The position numbers were made by a program, and so were the translations under genes. A DNA stretch of 64,000 nucleotides from Candidatus Binatus sp. (GTDB lineage Bacteria > Desulfobacterota > Binatia > Binatales > Binataceae). Positions 18,699 to 35,865 of the stretch are shown one piece after another (position 1 is the stretch's first letter; every line of letters begins with the position of its first letter). The stretch lies in the NCBI RefSeq assembly GCF_050013435.1, contig NZ_JBEKFG010000005.1, positions 12,609 through 76,608 of the forward strand, written 5' to 3'. The notes below the pieces were generated by a model, which was not told the DNA's origin, did no database searches, and saw only the letters and a program-made list of their open reading frames with translations.

Positions 18699-18714
18699 GG
18701 GCACAAATGTTGCT
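18699..18714 (+). promoter_or_regulatory. sigma-54 (-24/-12) promoter candidate upstream of the porin-cytochrome cluster
   Basis: gGGCACaaatgTTGCt matches TGGCAC-N5-TTGCW in both conserved blocks with correct spacing. The GC dinucleotide lies 46 nt before the ATG at 18759. Confidence 0.65.
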
Positions 18715-18758
18715 CCGCGACGAATGCGCCGACTACTTGGGCGCCGATTGGAGGAATT

Positions 18759-20318
18759 ATGCCAGCCAGACGAATTTTCTCGATATTTCTCCTCGCATTT
18801 GGCCTCGTGGCGTTATCACGGGTGGGTCTGGCGCGCGCGGCCGACAGCGACGGCAGCGCCGCCGATCTCAAGGAAATCAAAAGCGAGATGCGTCAGTTGC
18901 GCGAGGAGCGCAAGCGTGACCGCGAAGTAATTCACTCGCTCGAGATCAAGGTTCAGCAACTCGAGACGAAGGATTCAAAGGTCGCGGCCACCACTGAGCA
19001 GTTGCACGCCACGGATCAGAAGCTCAAGGAGACGACCCTCGAGCTTCAGCAGACTAACGCCCAGGTGCAGACTTTGCAGACCAAGGTCGATGCGCCGATC
19101 GCGGCGTCGGAGTTTGGCGATGCGGTTAGTCGATACCTCGGAACCCACTCGTTCACCGTGGCCGGTGCCGCCGGCGGCAGCTTCATCTATGACCAGCAAA
19201 GCGGCGGCCTCGACGGCGTTTCTCATGTATCGCAGAATTCGTTCTTTTTCGATTGGGAGCCGATGTTTCTGTATCGCCCGACTGACTGGATCATGTTCGA
19301 GGGCGTGATCAGCACCGCGTTTGGAAGTACCGGGACGGGAGCCGATCTGTCGACCGCTGATTTTCAGATTTTTCTTAACGACTATATGACGGTCGTGGCC
19401 GGGCTTTTCGATCAGCCGTTCGGTGACTGGTACGAGAACCAGAGCCCGATGTGGGTGAACCGGTTTGTCACGGCGCCGCTGCCGTTTGGAGTTGAGCCCG
19501 TGGTTCCGCCGGGGGAGATTGGAGTCCAGCTTCGCGGCGGCATGCAATTCGGCGCGCTCGGTCAGGATTTCGACTACACCGTCTGGGGCGGAAACGGCCC
19601 CAATTTCAGCTCCAACGTCCTCGGCGCCGCGCTCTCGAGTCCAACCGCCGTCGCCAACAGCCAGACCAACGGCAAATCGATCGGCGCGCGTTTTCGCATC
19701 TATCCGCTCCCGGTAGATTCTCAAATGGGCCGCCTCGAGCTCGGAGCCTCCACCTACAACGGCAAGTGGGCAAATGGAAATTGGTACAATTCATGGGGCG
19801 TCGATTTCAACTACTTCATCGGCAACTTGCAGGCCCGCGGAGAATGGATGGAATCGTACCGTCAGATGCCCGACGGTATGGGCTCTGACAATCGCCAGGG
19901 ATGGTACGTGCAAGCCGGTTACGTCCTGAACGATCTCAACGTCCCGTGCTTCCCCGACAAGCTCAACGGCTATCTCCATCGATTTGAGCCGCTGGTGCGC
20001 TATTCGGGAGTCAACCAGCGCGCCGTTGCAAGCGACGACATCGAGGCCGCTACCGGCGTCGGCCAGGGCGGCTTCCAGACCGGTCTGGTTCCCGATTTCG
20101 GCATCAACGGGTCGCCGGCCACCTACGCGCCACACGCTCGCGAAGTCGCGTTGGCTCTCGACTATTGGATCGCACCATCGATCGTTTGGCAGAACGAATT
20201 CGACCTCGAGTTGCCGCAAAATGGAGGAGCATTCGTCTCACCCAGCGGCGCGGTGACACCCGCGGGTCCAATTCCCAACGATCGCGCCTTCCTCAGCCAA
20301 TTCACGATCGGATTCTGA
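18759..20318 (+). CDS. outer-membrane beta-barrel porin with N-terminal coiled coil (porin O/P-like)
   Basis: Signal peptide, about 90-aa heptad coiled coil, aromatic-rich alternating beta-strand pattern, C-terminal ...FTIGF. Confidence 0.65.
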   Translation: MPARRIFSIFLLAFGLVALSRVGLARAADSDGSAADLKEIKSEMRQLREERKRDREVIHSLEIKVQQLETKDSKVAATTEQLHATDQKLKETTLELQQTNAQVQTLQTKVDAPIAASEFGDAVSRYLGTHSFTVAGAAGGSFIYDQQSGGLDGVSHVSQNSFFFDWEPMFLYRPTDWIMFEGVISTAFGSTGTGADLSTADFQIFLNDYMTVVAGLFDQPFGDWYENQSPMWVNRFVTAPLPFGVEPVVPPGEIGVQLRGGMQFGALGQDFDYTVWGGNGPNFSSNVLGAALSSPTAVANSQTNGKSIGARFRIYPLPVDSQMGRLELGASTYNGKWANGNWYNSWGVDFNYFIGNLQARGEWMESYRQMPDGMGSDNRQGWYVQAGYVLNDLNVPCFPDKLNGYLHRFEPLVRYSGVNQRAVASDDIEAATGVGQGGFQTGLVPDFGINGSPATYAPHAREVALALDYWIAPSIVWQNEFDLELPQNGGAFVSPSGAVTPAGPIPNDRAFLSQFTIGF

Positions 20319-20326
20319 GCGGAGTC

Positions 20327-20614
20327 ATGGCCATGAGAAAAATATTCGCGGCAATCGTACTTGCGACTCTAACGATCGGATTTGTCGGCGCTCCCGCTTC
20401 GGCTCAGGAGAATCTTTCCCCGGCCGAGCACAGACGCCTGTTTCGGGAGGGCGCCCAACTCTGGCCGGTTTACTGCAACACCTGCCATAATGCGCGACCG
20501 GGATCCGAGAAGGCGCCCTATGAGTGGGACCTGATCATCATGCATATGCGCACGCTGGGAAATTTACCGGCCGGCGACACCAGGGCGCTGGTGGAATACC
20601 TCAAGGCCCGTTGA
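20327..20614 (+). CDS. monoheme cytochrome c
   Basis: 95 aa with signal peptide and a single CNTCH motif. GGAG lies 5 nt upstream of the ATG. Confidence 0.8.
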   Translation: MAMRKIFAAIVLATLTIGFVGAPASAQENLSPAEHRRLFREGAQLWPVYCNTCHNARPGSEKAPYEWDLIIMHMRTLGNLPAGDTRALVEYLKAR

Positions 20615-20653
20615 ATCGCCCTCGGCGGCGCGAACATTGAACCGGAGGACAAC

Positions 20654-21010
20654 GTGAACCGACTTATCTCGACCATTGGTGTGTGCGCGATCATCGCATG
20701 CGCGTTTGTGCCTGCGCGCGCGGCCGACATGGCTGCCGCCAAGCAGAGCTACAATACGTTTTGTATGAAGTGCCACGGCACCGATGGCCAAGGCGACGGT
20801 GCTGCCGCGGCTACCCTTGCCACCAAGCCTCGCAATTTCACTGATTGCGCGACGATGGGCAAGATTACCGACGAGACCCTGTTCAACGCGATCAAGAACG
20901 GCGGCGCCTCGGTTGGTCTCAGCAAAGATATGCAGGCGTGGAGCACCGGTTTCGGGGACGACGAGATCCACGACCTCGTCGCTTACGTCAGGGCCTTCTG
21001 CAAGAAGTAA
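20654..21010 (+). CDS. class I monoheme cytochrome c
   Basis: 118 aa from a GTG start after GGAGG. Signal peptide, CMKCH heme site, distal Met region (SKDMQAW). Confidence 0.85.
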   Translation: MNRLISTIGVCAIIACAFVPARAADMAAAKQSYNTFCMKCHGTDGQGDGAAAATLATKPRNFTDCATMGKITDETLFNAIKNGGASVGLSKDMQAWSTGFGDDEIHDLVAYVRAFCKK

Positions 21011-21021
21011 GCGCGACCTCG

Positions 21022-22941
21022 ATGCCCGATGGAAATTTGATTGACGCGATCCCGCGCGACTTGTGGTGGTTTCGCAAGAACGTGCCGTGCCTTGAAGCGT
21101 GCCCGGTCAAAACCGACGCCGGCCGCTACGTTCAACTGGTCGCCGAAGGACGCCTGGCCGAAGCATATCGCGTTGCGCGATCGCCCAATCCGATCGCGTC
21201 CATATGCGGCCGCGCTTGCGGCGCGCCATGCGAGGACGCGTGCCGCCGCGGCAAGATCGACGCGCCCGTGACGATTCGCGCGCTCAAGCGCTTTCTCACC
21301 GAGCAATTCGGCCCCGAAGCACTCTCGGCCCGCGGCATCCGTGACATGATCGCCGGACCATCCGGCGGCGGCAGCGTCACTCCCGGTCATCTCGATATTC
21401 TCGGCGCACGGCCCGACGCCGGCGCGCCCAGGCGCAAAGTCGCAGTCGTCGGCGCGGGTCCGGCCGGGCTCGCATGCGCACACGATCTGGCCGTGATGGG
21501 CTACAGCGTCACGGTTTTCGAGGCGATGCCGCATCCGGGCGGGATGCTTCGCTACGGGATTCCCGCCTACCGTCTTCCGCGCGACGTGATCGACTGCCAG
21601 GTCGGCGAGATCGAAGCGCTGGGTGTCGAGTTTCGCTACTCGACGCCGCTTCGACCCGGCTTCGGAGTTCAAGAACTCAAAGAGCAGGGCTATGAAGCTA
21701 TCTTTCTCGCCGTTGGAGCGTCGCGCGGCCGCGCGGTGCCGATCGAGGGGGTCGATACCGACGGCGTGATCAAGGCGATCGACTACCTGCTCAATATCCA
21801 TCGCGGCTTCCGCGTTCCGCTCGGCGGCAAGGTGGTCGTTATAGGCGGCGGCCTGGTCGCCATCGATGCGGCCCGAACCGCGGTTCGCACCCTCCTGCCC
21901 GGACTCGTCATGTCGCAGGAGGAAGAACAGAGCGTCGCGGCCGGCACGATGCGCGTCGCACTCGATGCGGCGCGCGAGGCGGCGCGGCGCGGTGCGCTCG
22001 AAGTTACGGTCGCCAGTCTTGAGTCCGAGCCCGAGATGCCGGCGATGAAATCCGCGCAGGGCCGCGAGGAACTCGATATCGCGCGCGACGAGGGCGTCAC
22101 TTTTCTCCCCGGTTGGGGCCCCAAGCGAATCGTCAGCCGCGACGGCCATGCGGTCGGAATCGAATTAGTCAAATGCGTCAGGGTATTCGATGAAGCGGGC
22201 CGCTTCCGGCCGCAATTTGACGAAAACGATCGCCGCGTCGTTGACGCCGACGGCGTGATCCTCGCCATCGGGCAGGCGCCGGACCTGTCGTTTATCAAGC
22301 CGCAAGATGGTGTCACCATCACGCCCGCCGGAACTGTCAAGATCGACCCGGTCACTCTCGAAACCGGCATCGCCGGCGTATTCGCAGGCGGCGATGCGGC
22401 CTTTCCACCTTCCCTGCTGATCACCTGTGCACAGCACGGCAAGGTCGCCGCGCGCGGCATCGACGCCTATCTCCGCGGGATACCGCTCGGCCAGCCGCGC
22501 ATGCACGTCACCATCGAGGAGCTGCCGACCGACAGCTACACGATGGTTGAACGTTACGAGCAGAAGCCTCGCGAGGTTCCGCTGGTCCCGCTCTCGCGCC
22601 GCACCGGAATCACCGAAGTCGAGTCCGTGTTAAGTCCGGGCGACGCGCACGAGCAGGCCGAGCGATGCCTCTACTGCCATATCCATCCGATCTACAACGG
22701 CTCGGCATGCATTCTGTGCAATCGATGCGTGGACATTTGCCCGGAGCATTGCCTGCATTTCGCCCCCGCCGGCGAGATCGCCGATCAGGAGCGGGTTGCC
22801 GGCGTGATGACGGAGGCGCCGACGCGCAGTGCTTTTCTCTACGACGAGACCAAATGCATCCGTTGCGGCCTGTGCGCGATCAGGTGCCCGACCTCGGCGA
22901 TTACCATGGAACGCTTTCAGTTCGAAGAGACGGCCGTCTGA
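21022..22941 (+). CDS. GltD/SudA-like FAD- and NAD(P)H-binding oxidoreductase fused to a 2x[4Fe-4S] ferredoxin domain
   Basis: N-terminal Cys cluster (CLEACP...[13 protein letters not shown]). Dinucleotide fold [15 protein letters not shown] and a second Rossmann [15 protein letters not shown]-terminal [12 protein letters not shown] and [12 protein letters not shown]. Confidence 0.85.
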
Positions 22942-23402
22942 TGGACAGCGATCGGCGAAGAATTCTGCGCTTCATCGGCAAAGGCTCGGTGTTGGCCGCC
23001 TTCCTTGGCCAGATCGGCGCTGCCGGCAGGGCATTCTATCCCAACGTGCTCTACGAGCCGCCCAGCCGCTTCAAACTCAAGCGCCCCAACGATTACCCCG
23101 ACGGCTACACCTTTGTCGAAGCGCACCGCCTGTTTGTGATTCGTCAAAAGGAGGCGTTCCACGTCATCTCCGCCATCTGCACGCATCTGGGATGCACAGT
23201 GCAGTGGAAAGATACCGAGTTCGATTGTCCGTGCCATGGCAGCCGCTTTAATCCCGACGGCACGGTGATTTCGGGCCCTGCGCCACGTCCTCTCGATTGG
23301 TTTGCGACGACCGTTTCGCCCGACGGGTTCCTCGAAGTTGACAGCGCCACCGACGTTGCGCGCGACTTCAGGCTGCTCGTCGGCGGAAAAGGCAAGGCTT
23401 GA
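22941..23402 (+). CDS. Rieske [2Fe-2S] subunit with Tat signal
   Basis: RRRILRF twin-arginine motif. CTHLGC ... CPCHGS cluster-binding boxes. ATGA start/stop overlap with the upstream gene. Confidence 0.9.
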
Positions 23403-23405
23403 TCC

Positions 23406-24707
23406 GTGGGCGATAAGATCAAGGCGCTCTGGCGCAAGACTTTGTGGGCGTGGTCGCCTGACAGCGAGCGCGAATCGTCGGAATCAATCGTCAAGAACTT
23501 CTGGCTCCACTGGTTCCCGGCCAAAGTCGCGCGCGCCAGCATGGATTGGAACTACTCCTTCTGGCTCGGCACCGCGTCGGCATCGCTGCTGATGATCCTG
23601 ACCGTCACCGGCGTGATGCTGATGTTCTATTACGTGCCGTCCACCGAGCGCGCCTACGGAAGTATCAAGGATCTGGAATACGCCGTCAGCTTCGGCCGCC
23701 TGCTCAGAAATCAGCATCGATGGGCGGCGGAGGGGATGGTTGCGGTTGTTTATATCCACATGGCGCGAGTGTTCTTCACCGGCGCGTACCGCGGCACCCG
23801 CGCGATCAACTGGGTGGTCGGGGTAATTCTTTTCCTCGCGACATTGCTTCTGTCCTTCACCGGTTACCTGCTGCCGTGGGACCAGCTCGCATTCTGGGCG
23901 ATCACCGTGGGCACCAGCATCGCGAAGCAAGCGCCGGTGGTCGGACCTACTATCCAATTCATTCTGCTTGGCGGCAATGAGATCGGACAGCAGACCTTGC
24001 TGCGTTTTTACGTGCTGCACGTTTTCTTCCTGCCGGTCTTCGCGTTGGTGCTGTTCGCTTATCACATGTGGCGCGTGCGCAAGGACGGCGGTCTCGCGGC
24101 GATCGAGCGCGTCCGCCATGAGCGCGCGATGGCGCCGAAGGCGACTCCCAAGACCAAAAGTTACTCGCTGTTCGGGATTACGCCGGGCACCTCCGTGCAG
24201 GTGATGAGTTCGACCGGTCTCGAAGAGTCCGATCAGGTTTTCTCGTCGCCGAATATGTCGCGGCGAATCGCGCTGGTCTTCCTGGTCGTGTTCAACATCA
24301 CGCTGCTGGCCGCGTTGATGTTCAATGCGCCGCTGGAGGGTCTCGCCAATCCATCGGTGACGCCCAATCCGGCGAAAGCGCCGTGGTATTTCGTCTGGCT
24401 GCAGGAGTTGGTCGCTTCAACAACTGTTCGCATGGGCGGGTTTACCGTCAGCGGCGCGTTGCTGGGCGGAATACTGCTGCCCGGATTTCTGCTCGCCGTG
24501 CTCACGCTATGGCCGTTCATCGATCGTTCGTCACTTCGGACCGAGGGGCGATGGCTCGCCCCCGAGCGCAGGCGGCAGAACGTAACCTTCGCGCTGGCGA
24601 CGCTCGCGATCATCGTGCTGATCGTGGTCGGGGTTTACTTGCGCGGTCCCTACTGGCGGATCTACTGGCCCGGACAGCCGCGCCCCGAGATGCCGCGGCT
24701 TTACTGA
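23406..24707 (+). CDS. cytochrome b (fused b6 plus subunit IV-like)
   Basis: 433 aa. Contains RNQHRWAAEGMVAVVYIHMARVFFTGAY and LLPWDQLAFWA; conserved heme-ligand His pairs. GTG start. Confidence 0.9.
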   Translation: MGDKIKALWRKTLWAWSPDSERESSESIVKNFWLHWFPAKVARASMDWNYSFWLGTASASLLMILTVTGVMLMFYYVPSTERAYGSIKDLEYAVSFGRLLRNQHRWAAEGMVAVVYIHMARVFFTGAYRGTRAINWVVGVILFLATLLLSFTGYLLPWDQLAFWAITVGTSIAKQAPVVGPTIQFILLGGNEIGQQTLLRFYVLHVFFLPVFALVLFAYHMWRVRKDGGLAAIERVRHERAMAPKATPKTKSYSLFGITPGTSVQVMSSTGLEESDQVFSSPNMSRRIALVFLVVFNITLLAALMFNAPLEGLANPSVTPNPAKAPWYFVWLQELVASTTVRMGGFTVSGALLGGILLPGFLLAVLTLWPFIDRSSLRTEGRWLAPERRRQNVTFALATLAIIVLIVVGVYLRGPYWRIYWPGQPRPEMPRLY

Positions 24708-24708
24708 A

Positions 24709-25668
24709 ATGGCTGAAATCGGCAACAAGAACGAATCGTTCGAGGCCAAGGACTTCGGCTGGATGGTCGCGATGTCGGTCCTGTTCTTCGGGCTGGTCGT
24801 GGTTGGCTTCTGGTTTGAGTTCAGCACCGATTGGGGAGCTTATCAGCGTGAGTTTCCTCAACTGCTGAGCCACTACGGTAAAGTCGAAGACGCGCGCGAC
24901 TTCCGCGAGGGCATCAAACAGATCTGGATACCCAAGATTGGCGTCACCGATCGCTGCATCACGTGCCATCTCGGCTACGAATGGTCTTCGGTTCTTCCGG
25001 CCACGATCGCCGAGCCGCTGAAGCCGCACACGATGAACGATTGGCTCGCGAAGCATGAATTCGAGCGCTTCGGATGCACGCCATGCCACGGCGGCGACGG
25101 ATCGGCAACAACTCTCGCGGGATCTCATCAAGGGGGAAAGGGATGGGAAGATCCAATGCTCTCGCGCGCGCTGGCAGAGCGAAACGGGCTCACGATGAAC
25201 GAGATGATGCAGATGCGATGCAACTTTTGCCATCGCCGTGATGCCGCGACGCCGGGGATGGACGAGATCAATCTCGCCAAACGGCTCATCGTCAAGAAAA
25301 AGTGCCTGATCTGCCATACCGTCGAAGGGCGCGGCGGCAACACCGGACCCGAGCTGACCTACGAGGGCGACAAAAACCCCGAGTTGCTGAGCTTCGCGCA
25401 CGTCAACGGCGAACGCACGATGTTCAATTGGAACGTGCAGCATCTGACGCAGGCGAGCGTGGTTACGCCGAACACGCAGATGCCCGATTTCAACATGAAG
25501 CCCGAGGAATCGAGAGCGCTGACGCTGCTTCTGCTCAGCTGGCGGCGGCTGCCGTATCCCCCGGAATACATCCCGGATCCGGAATTGGCCGCAGCGGCGA
25601 TGCAACCGTCGCCGTCGCCTGCCTCAAGCGCGACTCCGGCTCCGGCCGCGACGCCTATCGCGCGTTGA
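24709..25668 (+). CDS. membrane-anchored tetraheme cytochrome c
   Basis: N-terminal TM helix. Four CXXCH motifs (CITCH, CTPCH, CNFCH, CLICH). Pro/Ala/Ser tail. Confidence 0.85.
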   Translation: MAEIGNKNESFEAKDFGWMVAMSVLFFGLVVVGFWFEFSTDWGAYQREFPQLLSHYGKVEDARDFREGIKQIWIPKIGVTDRCITCHLGYEWSSVLPATIAEPLKPHTMNDWLAKHEFERFGCTPCHGGDGSATTLAGSHQGGKGWEDPMLSRALAERNGLTMNEMMQMRCNFCHRRDAATPGMDEINLAKRLIVKKKCLICHTVEGRGGNTGPELTYEGDKNPELLSFAHVNGERTMFNWNVQHLTQASVVTPNTQMPDFNMKPEESRALTLLLLSWRRLPYPPEYIPDPELAAAAMQPSPSPASSATPAPAATPIAR

Positions 25669-25700
25669 GTATTCCGAGTTAAATATCGTTTGGTGAATCG

Positions 25701-26126
25701 ATGAAGCTGAAATTGTTGGCGTCAATCTTTGCGCTAGGCGCCGCGCTGTCCGTCGCGCAGCCCGCGCTGTCTGCGGGCAATGACGTGAGCGACGGGCACC
25801 GTTATTTCCTTCGCTACTGTGCGTCATGCCATGGTCTGGACGGTCTCGGAGACGGTCCGGTGGCGAAGAGCCTGTCCACGCCGCCGACAAGTCTGCGCAA
25901 GCTCGGCGACAAATATGGCGTGCCGCTGCCGGCGCATCGCATAGCCGAACTGATAGACGGTCGAGATACACCCAGGGCGCATGGGACTCACGAGATGCCG
26001 GTATGGGGAGAGCGCCTTTACGAGCTTGGCCAGGGTGAAAGGGGCGAATACGGGATCGGTGAAGTGATCGGCAAAATTATTGCCTACCTCAACATGATTC
26101 AGGATCGCCGAACTGCGATGCGATAA
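25701..26126 (+). CDS. monoheme cytochrome c
   Basis: Signal peptide, CASCH motif, HEMPVW distal Met region. Confidence 0.85.
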   Translation: MKLKLLASIFALGAALSVAQPALSAGNDVSDGHRYFLRYCASCHGLDGLGDGPVAKSLSTPPTSLRKLGDKYGVPLPAHRIAELIDGRDTPRAHGTHEMPVWGERLYELGQGERGEYGIGEVIGKIIAYLNMIQDRRTAMR

Positions 26127-26750: not shown

Positions 26751-27046
26751 TTTTTCCAGCCACCTCTGTCGTATTCTGCATGGGTCAAGATGTAGCGGAT
26801 GAACAGCATTTGCCTGTTGAAGTGAATCGCTGCGATCAGCCTGTACTTGTTACCAGCAATATTGAAAACGTAGAAATCGCCCTTGCCGGTCGGCACGTAG
26901 TCCACCGATCCGAAGGTTCGCTTCAGCTCGGCCAGATTTGAATACGTTCCACTTTTTACCAGCTTGCACCATACTCGCAGCGGCGCGTCAGCATCGGGGT
27001 ATTGTTGCGCGAAGTCCCTGAGCGCCTTCTCCGAGACAACCCGCAT
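26747..27046 (-). CDS. higB: HigB-type mRNA interferase toxin
   Basis: 99 aa, toxin-first arrangement. Contains FNIAGNKYRLIAAIHFNRQMLFIRYILTHAEYD. Confidence 0.85.
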   Translation of the reverse strand: MRVVSEKALRDFAQQYPDADAPLRVWCKLVKSGTYSNLAELKRTFGSVDYVPTGKGDFYVFNIAGNKYRLIAAIHFNRQMLFIRYILTHAEYDRGGWKK

Positions 27047-27378: not shown

Positions 27379-29049
27379 TCAGCGGGCGCCTGAGTTGCCA
27401 GGTTCGCAGGGCGTACGATGCAGCAGGGGTTCGAGCGCATCGTCGATTTCCGTGACAAGGCATTCGCGCGGCCGGGTGGTATCGATGCGCAGGTGGTTGC
27501 GCGCCGCAATCTCGCCAAGCGGCTCGAACTCGGCGCGCTGGCGCTGGTACACCTCCGGCGTAGCGTCTGAGACTTCACCGTGTATCGACGCGCGCCGCTC
27601 CAGCCGGCGTATCGCTTCGTCCTCACTGACGACGCATTCAACGAAAAGCACCGGCACGCCGTGGCGCGCCGCTATCGCCAGGGAGCGCTGCCTTTTGGCG
27701 GACGCCTTGAACGTCGCGTCGAGAATCGCTCCGCGGCCCTCGCTCAGGAGGCTCTCCGCTTCGTCGAGCATCGCGTCGTAGGTGATTGTCGTAAACCTGT
27801 CGGAATATATATCGGCTCCGTAATCCGCGCGGACGTGCTCGTGTGCGGAGACAGCTGCCAGGCGCTTGCGGACGCGGTCCGAGTTGATGATCTCGAAGCC
27901 CTTGCGATGCCGGAGCATGCGGGCGACGGTCGATTTGCCGGTGCCCGAAAGCCCGCACACTACGATCAGAGCCGGCGATGCGCCACGGGCATAGCGCCAC
28001 GCGAGCTCGAAGTAACTCCGCGCGAGTTGCCCAGCGCGCTCGTTATCCGCCGCGCCAACCTCGCGCTCGAGGCTTCTCAGGCTCTCGACCTTGCCGCGCA
28101 CGCATGCGCGATAGCACTTGTAGAACGGAACGAACAGCGCAAGCTCTTCGTCGCCGGTGATCTCCGCGTAGTCCTCGACCAACTCTTCGGCGAACCCAGG
28201 CGCGCCGAGCCGCTCGAGGTCCATCGCCAGGAATGCGATCTCCGAAGCGACGTCGCCGTAGCGCAACTGCTCGCTGAACTCGACGCAATCGATCACATCG
28301 ATTTCGTTTTCGTTGCCCACAAGGCAGATATGCTCGGCGCGCAAATCGCCGTGGCCTTCGCGCACCCGGCCCTCGCGCGCCCGCTCATTCAATGGCCGCC
28401 AATGAGCCGTGATAAAGGCGCGGCAGAAGGCGTCGATCGCGGTGAATTGGTCTTGGCGAAGCGTGCGACCGATAAAATCCCGGCTCTGCGCGATGTCCCC
28501 GATCACGCCGCGCCAGATTGCCGCGGCTGAACCGTAGGCCCATCCACGATTCGACGGCGCGCTCGCATGAAACTGCGCCATACGCGCCGCAATAGCGCGA
28601 ATCGTGCGGCTATCCACCTGGCCCGCGGCGAGCAGCCGATCGAGCATGCGGTCTTCGGGCAGCCGGCGCATCTTGACCGCGTACTCGACGGCTTCGGGAT
28701 GCTCGACGCGAACCTCGGGTCCGAGCACGAAGCAGTCCGCACGCTTAAGAATCGCGAACACGCCGAGGTACACACTTGGCGAAAGACGCGCGTTGAGGCG
28801 CACCTCCTCGATGCAATAGTGGAACCGGCGCGCGAGCCTGGAACAATCCAGGAATGCAAAATGAACCGGCTTCTTGACCTTGAAAACCGTTTCTCCGGCG
28901 ACAAAGACGTAAGATATGTGCGTCTGCTTGAGTTCGACGCGAGCGGGCGAGTCCGGGTAGAACTCCGGCCGCATCATTGCCTCGACCAGCGCCGCGACAC
29001 CGCCCGCGCGATCTCCGCCAGGCCTCGGCGTCCCGCATGGTTCCATCAT
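27379..29049 (-). CDS. bifunctional phosphotransferase (APH-like kinase fold) plus P-loop kinase (AAA_33-like) protein
   Basis: Start at MMEPCG. N-terminal kinase-like region (HGDLRAEHI catalytic loop). C-terminal Walker A CGLSGTGKST. Confidence 0.75.
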   Translation of the reverse strand: MMEPCGTPRPGGDRAGGVAALVEAMMRPEFYPDSPARVELKQTHISYVFVAGETVFKVKKPVHFAFLDCSRLARRFHYCIEEVRLNARLSPSVYLGVFAILKRADCFVLGPEVRVEHPEAVEYAVKMRRLPEDRMLDRLLAAGQVDSRTIRAIAARMAQFHASAPSNRGWAYGSAAAIWRGVIGDIAQSRDFIGRTLRQDQFTAIDAFCRAFITAHWRPLNERAREGRVREGHGDLRAEHICLVGNENEIDVIDCVEFSEQLRYGDVASEIAFLAMDLERLGAPGFAEELVEDYAEITGDEELALFVPFYKCYRACVRGKVESLRSLEREVGAADNERAGQLARSYFELAWRYARGASPALIVVCGLSGTGKSTVARMLRHRKGFEIINSDRVRKRLAAVSAHEHVRADYGADIYSDRFTTITYDAMLDEAESLLSEGRGAILDATFKASAKRQRSLAIAARHGVPVLFVECVVSEDEAIRRLERRASIHGEVSDATPEVYQRQRAEFEPLGEIAARNHLRIDTTRPRECLVTEIDDALEPLLHRTPCEPGNSGAR

Positions 29050-29090
29050 TTCACCCGGGTCCGCGCATCGCTCCCGCCTGCCCGCCGTGC

Positions 29091-29897
29091 TCAGACTCGC
29101 GCGGTCAGCGCCTCTAGCACGTCGCCCGTGGTTATCACGCCGGCGAGCTTGCCGTCTTCCAGCACTGGCAGCCCTCCGATCTTCCGGTCGCGCAGCAAGC
29201 GCGCAGCCTCTCGAATATCGGTCGATGGCGTGACAGTTATCAGCGTTTCGCTCATCGCCTTGCACGCCTCGGTTTGATCCAAAAGGCCGGTGTGCTGGCG
29301 GATGTCGCGGTCGGTCACAATTCCGACCGGGACGCCTTCATTGAGGATCGGCACGCATCGAAAGCCTCCCGCGTGCATCTTGGTTGCGATGGAGGCAAGC
29401 TTCTCGTGCGGAGTCGCGGTGATCGGATTTTTCGTCATCCAGGTGCCGACCAGGTCGCTTTGCGCGGGCGTGCAGCGCACGGTCACCACCGGGCACATGG
29501 ATTCGCGCAAGACGACCTCGGCGATGCTGCCAAGGAAAAAGCGCTTGAAGCCACGGCGCCCGTGCGTGGCCATTACGATTACGTCGGCGCTGGTTTTCTT
29601 TTCGGCGTTTAAGATGGCACCGGCCGGCTCGCCGGTATGGGTCAGAACTTCGTACTTGAGTCCGTCCAGTCGCTTGTGTGCGATCTCGAGCAGCTTGGCG
29701 CGGGCAGTCTCTTCCTGCCCCTTGTAGAGGTCGACATAGATCGGCATCCCCGTCGGCGCGAGGATCATCGGAACCACGTGCAAGACAAACACGGTGCCGT
29801 CGCTCTCGCGGGCGAAATCCGCGGCAGTATCGAGCGCCTGCATCGAGTTATCGTCGAAGTCCACCGGGCAAAGAATTCTGCGGAATGGGTATGCCAT
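29091..29897 (-). CDS. universal stress protein domain fused to a CBS pair
   Basis: Start at MAYPFRRILCPVDF. USP motif VMATHGRRGFKRFFLGSIAEVV, then two CBS repeats (GIVTDRDI, GVITTGDV). Confidence 0.85.
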   Translation of the reverse strand: MAYPFRRILCPVDFDDNSMQALDTAADFARESDGTVFVLHVVPMILAPTGMPIYVDLYKGQEETARAKLLEIAHKRLDGLKYEVLTHTGEPAGAILNAEKKTSADVIVMATHGRRGFKRFFLGSIAEVVLRESMCPVVTVRCTPAQSDLVGTWMTKNPITATPHEKLASIATKMHAGGFRCVPILNEGVPVGIVTDRDIRQHTGLLDQTEACKAMSETLITVTPSTDIREAARLLRDRKIGGLPVLEDGKLAGVITTGDVLEALTARV

Positions 29898-29945: not shown

Positions 29946-29961
29946 AGCGAATGCCGTGCCA
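29946..29961 (-). promoter_or_regulatory. sigma-54 promoter candidate for the USP-CBS / kinase operon
   Basis: Minus strand reads TGGCACggcatTCGCt. The GC dinucleotide is about 50 nt upstream of the ATG at 29897. Confidence 0.6.
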
Positions 29962-30164
29962 TCCCCGGTTTTGGATTTTCGCGGCTCGCAATGACGATTC
30001 GATCGCGCACCGCGATGACCTGCATCCGATCGCAGCACTCAGACACTTCCATGCTAAAGCATTCTTCAGCGAGCTTATAGCCGTCAAGAGATGCTCTCGC
30101 CACTCCGTAACCTTTATCGGTTCCGAGCGTCTTGCTGTTCACGACGGTATCTTACGGTCAATTT

Positions 30165-30461
30165 ATGAAACTCATCGCTTCAATATCGTTTGCCGCGGCC
30201 CTGTTAATGCTAGCGCCCGCCCTGTCGGCGCAGGCTCAGCCGAATTCAGTAGTAATCCCGTCCGCTAACGGCGCAAGCCAGAGCGCTCCGTCCGGTGGCG
30301 AGACGAATAAACCGGCAGTGGCCGAGACCGGGAAGCCGGCGGCTCACAAGGCCGCTCATCCCAAGAAGAAAAAGACCTCTTTCATGCATAAGATGCGTGA
30401 CAAGGCAGAGCAGCAAGTTCAAAAGCTGCTCGGCTCGAAACAACAACCAAAACCGCAATAG
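30165..30461 (+). CDS. small secreted Lys-rich protein, unknown function
   Basis: Signal peptide MKLIASISFAAALLMLAPALSAQA followed by a low-complexity basic mature part. Confidence 0.45.
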   Translation: MKLIASISFAAALLMLAPALSAQAQPNSVVIPSANGASQSAPSGGETNKPAVAETGKPAAHKAAHPKKKKTSFMHKMRDKAEQQVQKLLGSKQQPKPQ

Positions 30462-30668
30462 CTCCTGATCGTCCCTCAAGAGCCGCGTTGCTCTCGCAGA
30501 TACTCAGCCTGCGGAAGCGCAGCATCGATCGCGAAGATGTATCGCTTCGCGTCATTTCGCAAACGTCGATGCGGCTGATGGGCAGGATGAGACGGGGAGC
30601 GTTTACTGTCCAGCTCACAAAAGCCCGCACCTTCATTGCAGACCATAGCATCGACGCCTAGCCGCCGA

Positions 30669-30684
30669 TGGCAAGCGAATTGCA
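30669..30684 (+). promoter_or_regulatory. sigma-54 promoter candidate for the CBS-pair gene
   Basis: TGGCAAgcgaaTTGCA, with a single mismatch to TGGCAC-N5-TTGCA. 33 nt before the ATG at 30716, which has a GGAGG RBS. Confidence 0.6.
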
Positions 30685-30715: not shown

Positions 30716-31108
30716 ATGCAGATTGTCAACTTGATGACCCCGGACCCCATCGTAATCAATCCTGATGACACATTGGCGAACGCCAAGGCCGTCATGGACG
30801 ACGGCCGGTTCAGGCGATTGCCGGTGGTGGAGGGCGGGCGGCTGGTCGGGATCCTCACCGAGCGCGATATACGCGAGCACATGGGCTACCTGGGATCGAC
30901 GCGGGTGAATGCGGCGATGCGCACCGAGCTCATCACCGTCGCGCCGCATAGTACGGTGGAAGACGCGGCCCGGCTGATGCTGAAGCACAAGATCGGTGGA
31001 CTGCCGATCGTCGCCGACGGCAAGCTGGTCGGCATCGTCACCACGAGCGATTTGCTGAGGGCGTTCCTGCTGGTGGTTGCGGGAACCAGCAAGATCATGA
31101 ACGGCTAA
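30716..31108 (+). CDS. CBS-pair domain protein
   Basis: 130 aa. Two CBS repeats (GILTERDI, GIVTTSDL). Confidence 0.85.
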   Translation: MQIVNLMTPDPIVINPDDTLANAKAVMDDGRFRRLPVVEGGRLVGILTERDIREHMGYLGSTRVNAAMRTELITVAPHSTVEDAARLMLKHKIGGLPIVADGKLVGIVTTSDLLRAFLLVVAGTSKIMNG

Positions 31109-31146
31109 GGGCACGCAAGGAGCAGCGAATCGCAAAGAGGCATCGA

Positions 31147-31674
31147 ATGAAGCAGACCACCGGTAACACTCCCCGCAAGGGACTCACCCGCAGCCTCGAC
31201 CGCCGCGGCACGCGCTCCGACATGAGCCCGCCTGTCGCGCAGAAGCAGCGCCCACCCAAAGATCCCTCGGTTTGCGACGTCTGTGGGAGCATTTATACGG
31301 CCAAAACCTGGCGGCGCAATCGGACGCTCCCCGCCAAACTGATCAACGCGGCGGCATGGACTATCTGCCCGGGGTGCAAGCAGGCGAAAAGCGGCGAATA
31401 CTTCGGGCGGGTGCTGGTGCGCGGCTCGAACGCAAGCTCAAACCTGGAGGCGATCCGCGCGCGGATCGCCAACGTCGAACGGCGCGCCGAATTCACTCAA
31501 CCCGAGCGGCGGATTGTCTCCAGCAAATGGAATGGCGCGACGCTCGAGGTCCTGACCACGTCGCAAAAGCTGGCGCATCGTATCGCCCGCGAACTGCAGA
31601 AAGCTTTCGGCGGACGCGCGCGTTACAACTGGTCTGACCAGGACGGCGCCCTTACGGCCGTCTGGGAAGCGTAA
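31147..31674 (+). CDS. zinc-ribbon protein of unknown function
   Basis: 175 aa. CDVCG ... CPGCK four-Cys pattern, basic N-terminus. A weaker -24/-12-like site lies at 31109..31124. Confidence 0.55.
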   Translation: MKQTTGNTPRKGLTRSLDRRGTRSDMSPPVAQKQRPPKDPSVCDVCGSIYTAKTWRRNRTLPAKLINAAAWTICPGCKQAKSGEYFGRVLVRGSNASSNLEAIRARIANVERRAEFTQPERRIVSSKWNGATLEVLTTSQKLAHRIARELQKAFGGRARYNWSDQDGALTAVWEA

Positions 31675-31695
31675 ACGCGTGCGTCGCGCGCCTGA

Positions 31696-33198
31696 TCACT
31701 CGATTCCGTACTTCACGATCTTGGCGTAGAGCTTCTTGCGGGAGATCTTCAGCAGCTTGGCAGCCTGCACCTTGTTGCCTTCAGTCGCATCGAGCGCGCG
31801 GCGGATAAGGGCGTGCTCGGCATCGGCGAAACTGCCGACCGGATTTACCCTGGCGACGGGTTCGCGTTCGGCGGCGTGCGAACCGGCGATCGATGCCGGC
31901 AGGTCCTGCAATCGGATCACGGGCGAGCGGCTGAACGTGAATGCGCTCTCGATCGCGTTGGCAAGTTCGCGCACGTTGCCCGGCCACGAATACCGTCGCA
32001 TGGCCTCGATCGCTTCGTCCTCTGCCCCCGTGACCGGAACTCCCCGCATCTGCCGTGCGTTGAAGAGCTCGATGAAATGTTCGACCAGCAGCGCCACATC
32101 CTCAAGCCGCGCCCGCAGCGGCGGTATATGAATGACGCCCGCCTGCAGACGGTAGTAGAGGTCGTCTCGAAGGCGGCCGGCCTTCACCTCCTCCTGGGGA
32201 TCGCGGTTGGTCGAGGCGATCAGGCGCACGTCCACTGCAATCTCTCTGGTCGAGCCTACCGGACGCACCGAGCGCTCCTGAATCGCGCGCAGCAGCTTGC
32301 TCTGCGTGTCGGCGCTCATCTCCGTGACCTCGTCCAGGAACAGAGTTCCGCCGTCAGCCGCGCGGAACAGCCCCAGGTACTCGGCGTTCGCTCCGCTGAA
32401 CGCGCCGCGCTTGTATCCAAATAGCTCGCTTTCGATCAGGTCCTTGGGTACCGCCGCGCAGTTGAGCGCGACGAACGGCGCCCCCGGCTGCGGGCCGCAT
32501 TCATGAATGGCGTGCGCTACCAGCTCCTTGCCCGTGCCGCTCTCGCCGACGATTAGGATCGTGCCGCGCGTGACGCCGGCCGCCTCCACCCGGTCGTACA
32601 GCTGGCGCATCGCCGCACTGGCGCCGACCATCCCGTGGAACCGGCTGCGAGAATGATTTGGAAGCGTCGCGGCTTCGCGCTCGAGCGCCATTATTCGCGC
32701 TCCGGAGACGGCGGTCTTCGAGCGGAAGTAGGTATCGGCGAGCACGACGATCCGGATGTGACTTAGCTTGTCGAACGCCTGGTAGGTCCGCCCCGTTAAT
32801 GGCGGGAAGGTAGGAAACGCGGTGGCCGCGCTCTCCTCGAAAAGGTGGATCGAGACGATCAATTCCTGGAATGGCACCCCGCGTTCGGCGAGCTGTTCCC
32901 CGATTCGTGCGACGTTGGCGGCGAAGCCGTCCATGTCTTTGCCGAGTAAATCCTTCAGCGTGGCATCGAGTTCGCTGCCGTAAATCTCCATGAATTCCGT
33001 CTTCGTCAGCGCGCGGCTGTCGGCAAAGTGCAGCACGTAGAGCTGATACCAGTGGTCCAGCACGCGGTTGCGATGCTTCTGGACGGACTCCAGGACCGGA
33101 CGCAGCTCGTCGAGTTCCGTGTCCCACAGCAGGTGAAAATAGCGCGGCCCGCCGCTGGGCAGAGCAGCAGGAGCCGGTGCGTTGGTGTTTGTCTTCAT
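31696..33198 (-). CDS. sigma-54-dependent transcriptional activator (bacterial enhancer-binding protein)
   Basis: AAA+ core with GESGTGKE Walker A, GAFSGA (GAFTGA-loop variant) and ESELFGY. C-terminal Fis-type HTH ([20 protein letters not shown]). About 190-aa N-terminal sensor domain I cannot recognise. Confidence 0.9.
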
Positions 33199-33342
33199 TC
33201 GTCAGGTTTCCGGGTCAAATGGCTCGAAAGGCGTCAATCCGATTAAAAACTGCACTCAGCGGGGACAATTCTTTTTTAACATATGTTGCCTCAAAAACCA
33301 AAATCGTCGGATTTCAGCGGCGTTTTGCCCGGGCAGTCGCGT

Positions 33343-33358
33343 TGGCATGTTTCAAGCA
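33343..33358 (+). promoter_or_regulatory. sigma-54 promoter candidate, divergent from the activator gene
   Basis: TGGCATgtttcAAGCA has correct GG/GC spacing but a weaker -12 box. Confidence 0.45.
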
Positions 33359-33394: not shown

Positions 33395-33886
33395 ATGCTC
33401 CAGCAGCACAAACGACTGAAGCTCGCATCGAGCTCCTCGGAGGGCAAAGTGAGCCGCAAGTCTGGACCCCGGCTTGCGCTTGCCTCACAGGCGGACCCGG
33501 CAGGAACCACGGGCGGAAAGCGCGGGGCGATAGCAGTTTTCTCGCGCGACGAATCGGTCGTGCAGATAATCGCCGAGGGCGTGAGCGATGCCTGGGTCAT
33601 TGCGAAATTTGCCGATCCGCATGACGGGCACGCGTTCCTGCTCAAGCCGGACGTCAAGATGGTGGTAATCGACGACGAAGCTCTCGAGGAATCGACCCGC
33701 GCCTGGCTGCTTGACCAAGTGCGCAAACACGCCCTCCATGCACTCGTTGCCTACATCGCCGCGAATCACAGTCCCGAGACCGAACGGCAAGCGCGTGCAT
33801 ATAGCGTCCAGTACTACACCTCGAAGCCGATGGATCGAGAACGCACGCTCAGGGTTTTGCATTCGTTCGAGCACGCGGTTCATTAG
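33395..33886 (+). CDS. hypothetical protein
   Basis: The in-frame Met (MLQQHKRL) downstream of the candidate promoter was chosen as start; the tracked ORF starts earlier at 33182. No family recognised. Confidence 0.4.
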   Translation: MLQQHKRLKLASSSSEGKVSRKSGPRLALASQADPAGTTGGKRGAIAVFSRDESVVQIIAEGVSDAWVIAKFADPHDGHAFLLKPDVKMVVIDDEALEESTRAWLLDQVRKHALHALVAYIAANHSPETERQARAYSVQYYTSKPMDRERTLRVLHSFEHAVH

Positions 33887-33954
33887 GCCGCCAAATAAGC
33901 GCCGGCCTGGCGCTGCGCGCGACGGCGCTAATGGATAAGCACTCGCGGCTCGCG

Positions 33955-34419
33955 TCACTTCTGCTGGATGCTCTCGACGAATCGCGCCATCGCTTCGATT
34001 CTTCTCTTCACCTCGGCATCGCTTTCGGGCGTGAACTCCTGGCCCGGCTTCTGAAGGGTTGTCCCCCAAAAGGGCATCTGGAGCCGCGCGTGCGACGGTA
34101 TATTCTTGCGGCCGTCGATTGAGTCCACGACCTCATCGAAGGGAAATTTCCCGCCATTTTTCCTTGCCATCTGAGTGAGGTCGTTCGGCGGCGGGTTCAT
34201 CGGAATGCTCAAGCGGGAGGGGCCGTCGCCCTTACCGGTAAGCCCATGGCACTCGGCGCAGTAATTTTGGTAATCCCGGATTCCGGACTGCGCGGCGGCG
34301 GTCCGGGCGCTAGTCGCGAGCACCAGCGTCAGCAACAGGAACCCGGCCGACGCCTGCGCCAATGCCGTGAGTACTCTGCCTGGGAGCGCAATCGCGATGC
34401 GATTATATCGGCCCGTCAT
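33955..34419 (-). CDS. monoheme cytochrome c
   Basis: Signal/anchor helix, CAECH motif, distal Met region (LQMPFW). Confidence 0.8.
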   Translation of the reverse strand: MTGRYNRIAIALPGRVLTALAQASAGFLLLTLVLATSARTAAAQSGIRDYQNYCAECHGLTGKGDGPSRLSIPMNPPPNDLTQMARKNGGKFPFDEVVDSIDGRKNIPSHARLQMPFWGTTLQKPGQEFTPESDAEVKRRIEAMARFVESIQQK

Positions 34420-34902
34420 GGTGCGGGGTCCTTTCTGTGGTCATTTGAAATCGCCATTACACGCAGCTCATTAGGCGCGCTTTGCGTCTATTCAGCAACC
34501 TTACGACGCCACGCGAGAGACGCCCACGAATCATGACGCCAACGGCACCACCAGGTGACGCGATCGGCGGCATGATTCCTCGATCTATGCTTGCCCGCCG
34601 ACCCCAAAAGCCCGGAAACATCTTGTTTATGAGCGGAAGAAATGTGGCCCAAGCTGGATTTTAACTGCCGACCCTCATTCAGTTTTGATCGGGGAAATCG
34701 TCTGCGAATCTGGCGAGGTATTCGGACCAAAATAAAAGCAGCAGTGCTGGAGAGAATCTTCTTGTCGAGAATTCGCCTCGCATTTTCACCCTAACGGTCG
34801 GACGGCTGATTCGGCTTAGCGATCTGTCGAACCAGACTCCTCCAGGCGATTGTCGAAGGCCGACCGCCGCGGTTCAGATCCTCTTTTTGGTAGCGACAAA
34901 CG

Positions 34903-35652
34903 TCAGGATCGCAGGCTAGCCTGAATTTTTACCGAGTCGATGATGAAACGGCGGTGTTCGCGCGTCACCACGCCTTCAGCAACGAGACTCTTGAGGCACT
35001 CGCTCACTTTCGGCCGCGAGGACTCCACCAGGTCCGCTATGTCCTGACCGCTTAGACCCAGATCTATGATCATCGCGTGGTCGTCTCGCTGACCGAACTT
35101 GCGGCCGAGGTCGAGCAAGGCGAGCATGATTTTCTCTCGAACGGTTTGACTGAGAAAGTTTGAATGGCGCTCCAGAAGCGTCCACCATCGGCCGACCGTC
35201 AAATTGAGCGCCTCGTTAAACTCGCGGAATGGAATGCCAACGATGCCCTCCACGAGCGCGGTTGGGCTTATTAAACCGATTTGACAATCCGTGAACGTCT
35301 CGCAGGTGAGTTTATGATGGATATCGGGCAATAATGACGGAATCTCGATCACGTCGCCGGGTCCCAGCACCTCGAGCAGATTGCGTTCCCCTTTTCGATT
35401 GAGGCAGATAAGCCGGGCGATTCCCGAGAGCACGATGTACACGGCTTCATCTGATTCCCCCTCCTTATAGACGATCGAGTGTCTGGAAAACTGCCGAATC
35501 CTCATCCTGGCACGCAAGGCTTCCAATTTGCGTAAGGAAAGACCCGCCAGCCCTTTCAATTTCCCTAAATCTTGAGCGCTGACTGCGCGAGGTTGAGGAG
35601 GCCTGGCCCCCCTTTGCCTGATGTATCTGCCGCGTGACGAGCGTGGTGCCAT
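34903..35652 (-). CDS. Crp/Fnr-family transcriptional regulator
   Basis: Start at MAPRSS. cNMP-binding-like barrel (VYIVLSGIARLICL) and C-terminal HTH (SGQDIADLVESSRPKVSECLKSL). Confidence 0.8.
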   Translation of the reverse strand: MAPRSSRGRYIRQRGARPPQPRAVSAQDLGKLKGLAGLSLRKLEALRARMRIRQFSRHSIVYKEGESDEAVYIVLSGIARLICLNRKGERNLLEVLGPGDVIEIPSLLPDIHHKLTCETFTDCQIGLISPTALVEGIVGIPFREFNEALNLTVGRWWTLLERHSNFLSQTVREKIMLALLDLGRKFGQRDDHAMIIDLGLSGQDIADLVESSRPKVSECLKSLVAEGVVTREHRRFIIDSVKIQASLRS

Positions 35653-35865
35653 GGGTGGAAAAATTGAAGCGATCTCGGTGTCCCTTAAGTCTAACTTGCG
35701 TCCGTCGAATCGCAGCCGTCGAGCGCAGTCGCCGGATGTAACGACAATCGGTGCGAGAAAACAACGGAGGAGTCGTTCCTTTTGTAACAGAATCGGCCTT
35801 GAACGTAACTTTATTTGGCCTAGAACATGCTCCAAATTCAGGCTTATCCGTTGTAAGCGCCAACG

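Follow-up and report, generated by a model that had tools for sequence, protein, structure and literature searches.

Sigma-54 promoters with an activator encoded nearby are an already known kind of regulatory arrangement in bacteria. Here, such an arrangement is described in a stretch of 64,000 nucleotides from Candidatus Binatus sp. (contig NZ_JBEKFG010000005.1, positions 12,609 to 76,608 of the forward strand; the whole stretch is hereafter called the window), in which predicted sigma-54 promoters, a 17-bp upstream dyad, TGGYGCGATCGGATACA, and the gene for a sigma-54 activator, that is a bacterial enhancer-binding protein (bEBP), occur together. The closest known system is NmpRSTU of Myxococcus xanthus, a sigma-54 hypoxia regulon with similar cargo published in 2025, in which the NtrC-like regulator NmpR governs CBS, universal stress protein (USP), P-type ATPase/cbb3 and hemN-hemerythrin operons under hypoxia (PMC11841059). 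Specifically, NmpR is a receiver-domain response regulator that ends a multi-kinase phosphorelay, NmpU is a protoglobin kinase homologous to AfGcHK, and the NmpR binding site, GCGCA-N5-TGCGC, occurs in pairs (PMC11841059).

The Binatus locus resembles this system in having a sigma-54 activator, intergenic -24/-12 promoters, upstream dyads and a cargo of CBS, USP, P-type ATPase and hemerythrin genes, as well as, on structural prediction, globin-family sensing, AfGcHK being the best structural match of the N-terminal domain (N-domain) of the Binatus activator. The machinery, however, is built differently. The Binatus activator has no receiver, in contrast to NmpR with its phosphorelay, and a globin-like domain is fused to the AAA+ domain instead; a single 17-bp TGGYGCGATCGGATACA stands in place of the paired NmpR sites; the Nmp ATPase is a copper pump beside cbb3, whereas the Binatus ATPase is of the Ca/Mg type (Cation_ATPase_N and _C); and the Binatus N-domain, unlike the Nmp globin sensor, lacks the proximal histidine. 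Globin-coupled sensors such as AfGcHK, HemAT, DosC and BpeGReg, together with the N-domain of RsbR, likewise consist of an N-terminal globin-fold module, a long helix and an output domain, and the likeness to sensor globins includes the aromatic residue Y54 on the helix assigned as B. In Binatus, though, the output is a sigma-54 AAA+ activator, the F-helix histidine is not conserved and the Protoglobin match is sub-threshold.

Other described systems share single traits with the locus. NorR is a one-component regulator whose sensory N-domain, a GAF domain with non-haem iron that senses NO, directly controls the AAA+ domain without phosphorylation, acting through three sites with a GT-N7-AC core on a small stress regulon by its own gene, divergent promoter included. 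Control of the AAA+ domain by the N-domain, upstream dyads and a divergent promoter would be common to both, but the fold is globin-like in Binatus and a single 17-bp dyad is usual. The upstream activator site (UAS) of NifA, TGT-N10-ACA, lies about 60-150 bp upstream of the -24/-12 promoter and is helix-face dependent; the Binatus dyad has a spacer of 11 instead of 10 nt and strongly conserved inner bases (GCGATCGGAT), and the GAF sensory domain of NifA is unrelated to that of the Binatus activator. Finally, the DosR regulon of Mycobacterium tuberculosis includes USPs, the CBS-pair protein Hrp1, the P-type ATPase CtpF and the alpha-crystallin/HSP20 protein HspX, and is run by a NarL-type response regulator at sigma-70-type promoters, fed by haem-GAF kinases. 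Here the likeness is in cargo alone, the Binatus machinery being sigma-54 and an AAA+ activator; Pfam scans of the window found neither a NarL/LuxR-type DosR regulator nor haem-GAF kinases. Related Binataceae add DosR-like cargo in the form of trehalose and PNPOx-like genes behind dyad-promoter pairs, while a WS/DGAT gene, which has a sigma-54 site but lacks a dyad, and an RtcB gene, for which no site was found, are mere neighbours of the activator in related loci.

The phylum, the operator and the fusion of a globin-fold domain to a sigma-54 activator appear to be new. No published account of sigma-54 regulation in Binatota was found in a literature search, and full-text literature searches returned no description of a globin-fold module fused to a sigma-54 activator. 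The interpretation that we consider likely is that five promoters and the activator are joined through the dyad into a globin-gated, one-component programme for low oxygen, energy stress or dormancy.

Sigma-54 promoters of the window

In the window, with a base composition of 58-64% GC, TGGCAC-N5-TTGC-like matches are not above chance, with 66 occurrences at up to two mismatches against 66.5 expected in shuffled sequence and 6 at up to one mismatch against 5.0. Counting by itself therefore proves nothing, and placement statistics were used instead. A position weight matrix (PWM) for sigma-54 promoters was applied to every position of both strands, and a position was called promoter-competent when it lay between genes in the right orientation, with a start codon 15-100 nt downstream, which is the case for 2.1% of positions. 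The top four matches, in descending order 30669, 11142, 29946 (minus strand) and 18699 (Table 1), are all promoter-competent and end 32-49 nt ahead of start codons, giving a hypergeometric P of 2e-7. Moreover, in eight loci around activator orthologs, 24 of 35 matches of at least 12 bits are promoter-competent, against 0.9 expected. The 10-nt spacing between GG and GC, in a TGGCAC-N5-TTGC-like context, is found at these four sites and at 33343 (12.6-16.1 bits), while 31109 and 35816 are marginal for the -24/-12 pattern. Judged from its sequence, the window carries five genuine sigma-54 promoters, at 11142, 18699, 29946 (minus), 30669 and 33343.

The conservation of the USP-CBS, CBS, porin and 33343 sites was followed in 60 Binataceae loci around USP-CBS orthologs, 80 around porin orthologs and the eight around activator orthologs, individual loci being numbered L001 onwards. 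Of 59 loci with a USP-CBS ortholog, 48 have TGGCAC-N5-T[CG]GCT at 34-57 nt upstream of the start codon; these extend to orthologs with about 60% protein identity, and the DNA around the motif is unalignable among them. The CBS promoter is present in all six bEBP loci that have the CBS gene, nearly identical in L001, L002, L004, L006 and L007. The ATPase promoter at 11142, identical to the CBS promoter at 13 of 16 bases, is followed after 36 nt by the first start codon of the ORF, a TTG at 11193, and after about 55 nt by an ATG at 11212. The porin promoter recurs in about 38 of 70 orthologous loci; most porin genes of at least about 70% identity have [GA]GGCAC-N5-TTGCT 41-48 nt ahead of their ATG, as do several with 57-62% identity. 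Lastly, 33343, divergent from the activator gene, is conserved as TGGCA[TC]G[TC]TTCAAGC[AT] at 127-147 nt from the activator start codon in 15 distinct loci, and related forms occur in more distant orthologs.

A preliminary description of this DNA had proposed a local regulon around the activator from six quoted sites (18699, 29946-29961 on the minus strand, 30669, 31109, 33343 and 35816), all of which are indeed at those positions. Its picture of grouped promoters is real, but the group reaches beyond the range it gave, to the ATPase promoter at 11142, which it did not list. As promoters, 18699, 29946 (minus) and 30669 are supported by placement and conservation, and 33343 by conservation, whereas 31109 and 35816 are unsupported. 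In the PWM scan of the window the best four stand far from chance by placement, whereas the total number of pattern matches in the window does not. The figure of 13 of 16 matching positions given for 18699 needs a small correction, agreement being at 10 of the 12 positions that the model specifies.

A shared and phased upstream dyad

Alignment of the regions upstream of the USP-CBS promoters reveals the 17-nt element TGGYGCGATCGGATACA in 42 of 48 loci, with a 13-nt core free of mismatches in 30. The element is an imperfect dyad of the TGT-N11-ACA type; a sequence carrying it is TGGCGCGATCGGATACA, with the half-site GGATACA, and in L119 a perfect palindrome, TGTCGCCATCGGCGACA, is found. A dyad PWM trained solely on loci other than the window was then run on the window, where it gives five matches of at least 12 bits against 0.77 expected and two of at least 20 bits against 0.03 expected, both of the latter directly upstream of top sigma-54 sites. 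The common upstream site that the preliminary description had recommended looking for is thus this dyad, at 11096, 30021 and 30538, ahead of the ATPase, USP-CBS and CBS promoters, respectively. The copy at 30538 is degenerate; its counterpart in L001 scores 18.1 bits and also lies at a distance of 114 nt.

Across Binataceae loci, 95 of 116 dyads of at least 14 bits have an outward-pointing sigma-54 site (at least 11.5 bits) within 200 nt, and the distances between dyad and promoter cluster at about 19, 29, 40, 50, 61, 72, 82, 93, 103 and 114 nt, with a period of about 10.6 bp in either orientation (Rayleigh p about 1e-11 each). In sequence terms, this phasing is the signature of a protein that needs one helix face relative to the polymerase. 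In compact loci, for example L002 and L004, the divergent promoters of USP-CBS and CBS have a single dyad between them, which is shared by both; in the window, insertion of the 30132-30461 ORF (open reading frame) split the divergent region, each promoter keeping its own copy of the dyad.

At the porin operon, UAS-like dyads are present in about 20 of 33 distinct loci, 195-297 nt upstream of the promoter or, where the ortholog is distant, at 115-163 nt. Several of them score strongly (19-22 bits), although among the distal ones (195-297 nt) this is true solely of L110 (TGTATCGATCGGATACA, 22.1 bits). On this basis the porin operon probably belongs to the same regulon, its site being degenerate in the window. 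A k-mer search near the porin promoter also returned CGATACTT, at variable distances, in about one third of the orthologs. The TTTCG/CGAAA tract at 18485-18545, which had been suggested as an activator site, was rejected as the common one: it consists of two direct repeats of 15 nt, its score with the dyad PWM is below 0 bits, and it has no match to the dyad common to the other promoters. This tract could be a bending or other site.

Between the 33343 promoter and the activator start codon, at 33220-33236 and 106 nt upstream of 33343, lies a conserved 17-mer, TGGCTCGAAAGGCGTCA, which recurs with little or no change in L001, L002, L004 and L005. Its ends are of the form TG-N13-CA, it is not scored as a copy of the shared dyad, and it may be an autoregulatory or variant activator site, or a site of another factor. 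In the paralogous locus L008, a 22.6-bit dyad (10002-10018) that serves a divergent hemerythrin promoter lies over the activator's own start codon, which hints at autoregulation by occlusion. Two weak dyads of the window, at 34556-34572 (12.5 bits; intergenic, between the cytochrome c and Crp genes) and 62223-62239 (14.2 bits), have no sigma-54 site within 200 nt.

The activator and its N-terminal domain

Pfam scans over essentially all long ORFs of the window, on which the gene map is based, bear out the earlier proposal of a single sigma-54 activator, at 31696-33198. Its AAA+ domain matches PF00158 (Sigma54_activat) at 3.9e-64 and contains the loop GAFSGA, a conservative variant of GAFTGA, and its C-terminal helix-turn-helix (HTH) of the Fis type, at roughly residues 450-500, matches HTH_8 at 1.1e-10. 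The protein has no receiver, GAF or PAS domain; in particular, residues 1-190, which are highly conserved, show no Response_reg match even at E = 1. An assignment as a response regulator of the NtrC/NmpR type was rejected, as the receiver domain is missing and the N-domain model has an all-helical globin fold.

The AlphaFold model of the N-domain, built from 15 sequences, has a predicted local distance difference test score (pLDDT) of 83 and is all-helical. In Foldseek searches its top match is the AfGcHK sensor globin 5ohe/5ohf (21% identity, TM 0.58-0.73, with a modest E of 5e-3), and the other leading matches are all of the globin fold, that is globins or phycobiliproteins. Sub-threshold Protoglobin matches occur in four of 15 family members (best E = 0.003), while PDB sequence searches with the N-domain, as a single sequence and as a profile, returned noise and no globin. 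Residues H22, W50, Y54, H57, H118, E121, E122, D143, H147 and R149 are nearly invariant. From the model, the N-domain is predicted to be a globin-fold sensory module, and it is not filed here as a haem-binding globin-coupled sensor.

The N-domain family, which counts 209 clusters in a set of 1.84 billion representatives, is small and modular: the domain is N-terminal to PAS-histidine-kinase-receiver and GAF proteins and C-terminal in a DUF2249-hemerythrin protein (P0137). Fusion proteins recorded in the family are P0137, P0204 and P0240-P0265. The fusions to hemerythrin, kinase and GAF domains point to a portable signalling module tied to oxygen or iron chemistry.

Regulon content and proposed mechanism

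When the window and related loci are considered together, the genes found behind a dyad and a sigma-54 site include the USP-CBS/kinase pair, the CBS/zinc-ribbon pair (with a P-type ATPase or lacking one) as well as the porin/bc operon. Further genes in this position are HSP20-CBS-Cpn60, FtsH, the trehalose synthase TreT, acyl-CoA dehydrogenases, hemerythrin, a PNPOx-like protein and a Crp-family regulator. Loci anchored on the activator recurrently carry CBS, USP-CBS, P-type ATPase, HSP20, hemerythrin and PNPOx genes behind dyad-promoter pairs. As a side observation, the HSP20 promoters of L003 and L008 have TGGCGN variants. By analogy, the overlap with the NmpR and DosR regulons makes a response to oxygen or energy limitation the most likely function.

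In the mechanism that we propose, the activator would bind the dyad as a dimer-of-HTH unit, on a fixed helix face 29-114 nt upstream of the -24 box. The bound protein would then oligomerise, loop to the closed complex of sigma-54 RNA polymerase and open the promoter by ATP hydrolysis. Its activity would probably be gated by the N-terminal globin-fold domain rather than by phosphorylation, making it a one-component system, and the output would be a programme of the low-oxygen, energy-stress or dormancy type. In this scheme, binding of the dyad by the activator is deduced from synteny and architecture, and the identity of the signal and the physiological role are presumptive, the hypoxia and energy-stress interpretation drawing on gene content and on the analogy with Myxococcus Nmp.

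More tentatively, and with the balance somewhat against it, Binatota could possess a distinct class of one-component sigma-54 activators, in which a globin domain devoid of the haem histidine sits on an AAA+ motor and, via the phased dyad, makes a dormancy-like regulon respond to a signal from oxygen, redox state or metal. In such a class, the cluster of H57, H118, E121, E122, D143 and H147 may bind a metal or a new cofactor and, by analogy, the Myxococcus phosphorelay from NmpU to NmpR may have been collapsed into one protein, with a regulon including USP, CBS, P-type ATPase, HSP20 and hemerythrin genes and a respiratory complex of the bc type.

Evaluation of alternative explanations

Several observations weigh against a globin-gated, activator-driven programme at all five promoters. 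The sigma-54 PWM is our own, non-curated approximation of the published consensus TGGCACG-N4-TTGCW, and the RpoN box was not found in the DNA stretches fetched for the comparison of individual loci. As for the dyad, the window porin promoter has no good copy (best 6-8 bits), no match was found upstream of the 33343 promoter, and the ATPase copy is unusually near its promoter (29 nt). With respect to the N-domain, the Pfam Protoglobin match spans nearly the whole model and is sub-threshold (13.8 bits against a cut-off of 25, E = 0.059), and the predicted F helix (residues 89-105, by model-based mapping) has N95 and V96 and no proximal histidine; in the position-95 column over 205 relatives, D, E or N is found in most and H in 14. 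The missing histidine and the sub-threshold score make direct haem-based sensing of O2 doubtful. In addition, of the 60 USP-CBS loci, 26 have a homolog of the N-domain no more than 6 kb away, and the activator has paralogs with about 50-60% identity, which makes any pairing of a given paralog with a given promoter tentative. Lastly, the geometry of the dyad (6-N5-6) fits any dimeric HTH protein, the Crp/Fnr family included.

The alternative that survives best keeps the regulon as real and makes its signal unrelated to oxygen or energy, for example metal, envelope or stationary-phase stress, with a globin-like domain that is haem-free as in the N-domain of RsbR; we regard this as rather unlikely. 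The absence of the proximal histidine speaks for it, as do the conserved H22, H57, H118, E121, E122, D143 and H147, which suggest a different ligand or metal, a weak RsbRD_N match in one member of the N-domain family, and the presence of HSP20, Cpn60, FtsH and acyl-CoA dehydrogenases among the cargo elsewhere. It has to contend, however, with the overlap of cytochromes, hemerythrin, USP, CBS and P-type ATPase with the mycobacterial DosR regulon and with the fusion of the N-domain to a hemerythrin domain in P0137. Furthermore, the same gene classes are under the hypoxia-responsive NmpR in Myxococcus (PMC11841059).

Less probable still, and in our view improbable, is that the sigma-54 promoters are real and the dyad is bound by another protein, such as another bEBP, a paralog or a Crp/Fnr co-regulator, so that the activator is linked to them by synteny alone. 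An AAA+ activator is in any case required at sigma-54 promoters, the range of positions and the helical phasing of the dyad are typical of enhancer sites, all activator-anchored loci except one have dyad-promoter pairs within 10 kb, and in L008 the dyad overlaps the activator's own start codon. Speaking for it, on the other hand, are the absence of the activator from the 6-kb flanks of 34 of the 60 USP-CBS loci, with its 50-60%-identity paralogs, and the permissive geometry of the dyad; Crp/Fnr genes are near in the window, and in L008 one lies behind a dyad-promoter pair. That a short, degenerate pattern matches GC-rich DNA merely by chance accords with the whole-window counts and with the matches at 37441 and 40651, which lie inside genes and score as is typical of coding regions, but is hardly credible beside the placement statistic, the conservation over dozens of diverged loci and the coupling to a phased dyad; chance is refuted for 11142, 18699, 29946, 30669 and 33343, and is the best explanation for 31109, 35816, 37441 and 40651.

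Gene content of the window and further sites

Orthologs of the window proteins are found in metagenome-assembled genomes (MAGs) of Candidatus Binatus and other Binataceae, the nearest being the peat MAG palsa_1114 (L009, PLDK01000029, 98% identity). The features on which the preceding sections rely, and their neighbours, are collected in Table 1. The gene labels previously given (porin-like protein, cytochromes, USP-CBS, kinase, CBS pair and two Crp/Fnr genes) agree with Pfam.

Table 1. Predicted promoters, upstream dyads and genes of the window, in window coordinates; bits are PWM scores.
Feature	Position	Strand	Details
ATPase sigma-54 promoter	11142..11157	+	TGGCAGGCGGATTGCA; 15.3 bits, second-best in window; -12 GC 11155-11156
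Porin-cytochrome operon sigma-54 promoter	18699..18714	+	GGGCACAAATGTTGCT; 13.9 bits; 45 nt before ATG 18759; -12 GC 18712-18713
USP-CBS/kinase sigma-54 promoter	29946..29961	-	TGGCACGGCATTCGCT; 14.7 bits; 49 nt before ATG 29897; -12 GC 29947-29948
CBS-pair operon sigma-54 promoter	30669..30684	+	TGGCAAGCGAATTGCA; 16.1 bits, best in window; 32 nt before ATG 30716; -12 GC 30682-30683
Divergent sigma-54 promoter, receiver-like gene	33343..33358	+	TGGCATGTTTCAAGCA; 12.6 bits, intergenic; unusual -12 region (AAGC); -12 GC 33356-33357
ATPase UAS	11096..11112	-	TGGCGCGGTCGGATACA; 23.9 bits; 29 nt from -24 box
Two weak TGT-N11-ACA dyads, candidate distal UAS of porin operon	18428-18444, 18450-18466		6.3, 7.7 bits; 232-254 nt upstream of promoter
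USP-CBS UAS	30021..30037	-	TGCTGCGATCGGATGCA; 22.8 bits; 59 nt upstream of -24 box
CBS UAS, degenerate second copy	30538..30554	-	TGACGCGAAGCGATACA; 12.2 bits; 114 nt upstream of promoter
Glycogen phosphorylase	7103-9550	+	Pfam
P-type cation-transporting ATPase	11193..13712	+	Pfam E1-E2_ATPase, Cation_ATPase_N, Cation_ATPase_C; likely start ATG at 11212
MFS and CitMHS/ArsB-type transporters	13903-16481	+	Pfam
Hemerythrin	17826-18335	-	Pfam
Porin-cytochrome operon, eight genes	18759..26126	+	Pfam
HigBA (HigB/HigA) toxin-antitoxin pair	26340-27046	-	Pfam; between kinase gene and cytochrome operon
APH/AAA_33 kinase-like gene	ORF 27379-29265	-	Pfam AAA_33, APH; true start further downstream
USP-CBS gene	29091-29897	-	Pfam Usp, CBS; upstream partner of kinase-like gene
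ORF, small secreted Lys-rich 109-aa protein	30132-30461		Between divergent USP-CBS and CBS promoters; found in L001 too
CBS-pair gene	30716-31108	+	Pfam CBS
Zinc-ribbon, NMD3-like protein gene	31147-31674	+	Pfam NMD3
Sigma-54 activator (bEBP)	31696..33198	-	Pfam Sigma54_activat, HTH_8
Receiver-like protein gene, divergent from activator	~33395-33886	+	Weak Pfam Response_reg (E = 0.11); start codon uncertain
Cytochrome c	33955-34419	-	Pfam
Two divergent Crp/Fnr genes	34903-36642	-, +	Pfam

The products of the porin-cytochrome operon include a porin-like protein, a cytochrome c, an Fe-S flavoprotein (GltD-like), a Rieske protein, a cytochrome b, a multihaem cytochrome c and a cytochrome c, and its gene order is identical in L001 and L002. 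The multihaem cytochrome has a weak MtrC-like match. This unusual respiratory operon could be a periplasmic or extracellular electron-transfer module. The USP-CBS and kinase-like pair is kept in L001, L002, L004 and L007, and the CBS-pair/NMD3-like pair is conserved, the P-type ATPase coming next, within the CBS operon, in L006 and L007. The receiver-like gene encodes a protein that is conserved over its C-terminal 120 or so residues among the window, L001 and L007 and that may act with the activator as a partner or in feedback.

As for sites which do not belong to the five promoters, the -24/-12 look-alike GGGCACGCAAGGAGC at 31109..31124 (plus strand), in the 38-nt spacer between the CBS and NMD3 cistrons, was rejected, given that its -12 GC is lost in L001, L010, L011, L012 and L066. 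The site TGGCCTAGAACATGCT at 35816..35831 (plus strand), upstream of a Crp/Fnr gene, is unsupported, with a score of 10.5 bits, as in coding-region matches, and no UAS; the sole homologous stretch found is that of L009, 96% identical and therefore uninformative for conservation. With 31109 and 35816 both unsupported, the Crp/Fnr genes, previously counted among the cargo, lose their support as such in this window. No sigma-54 promoter above 5 bits was found for the hemerythrin gene, the cytochrome c gene at 33955-34419 or the minus-strand Crp gene. Two near-identical weak -24/-12-like sites, TGGCGACAAGTTTGCA (7022-7037) and TGGCGACTAATTTGCA (36901-36916), score 9.3 bits each; the former lies in intergenic DNA at a distance of 66 nt ahead of the gene for glycogen phosphorylase, and a weak dyad-like sequence, TGCCGAGATCGGTTCCA, is found at 6996-7012. 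The regulon could thus extend to glycogen phosphorylase.

Where the window has HigBA, at the junction of the cytochrome operon with the kinase gene, a PhdYeFM/PIN pair is present in L002 and L004, which suggests that this junction is a hotspot for toxin-antitoxin insertion. Farther on, RHS-repeat ORFs at 48653-51919 and 54281-55450 flank an FGE-sulfatase-like gene, with an rve_3 integrase gene nearby; these genes probably form a mobile or polymorphic-toxin region and have no relation to the regulon.

Significance for the Binatota

Binatota are abundant, uncultured bacteria of soil and peat, for which the locus gives a testable predicted regulon, consisting of five mapped promoters, a candidate regulator and an operator of 17 bp whose helical phasing is strict. 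With the two PWMs, Binataceae MAGs, by the hundreds, can be annotated for regulons, and peat metatranscriptomes can be read for a response to limitation of oxygen or energy. The cargo parallels hypoxia and dormancy programmes that are run elsewhere by quite different regulators, namely DosR in mycobacteria and NmpRSTU in myxobacteria. Should the sensor be the globin-like domain, it would represent a new output class for globin-coupled signalling and, at the same time, a new input class for sigma-54 activators.

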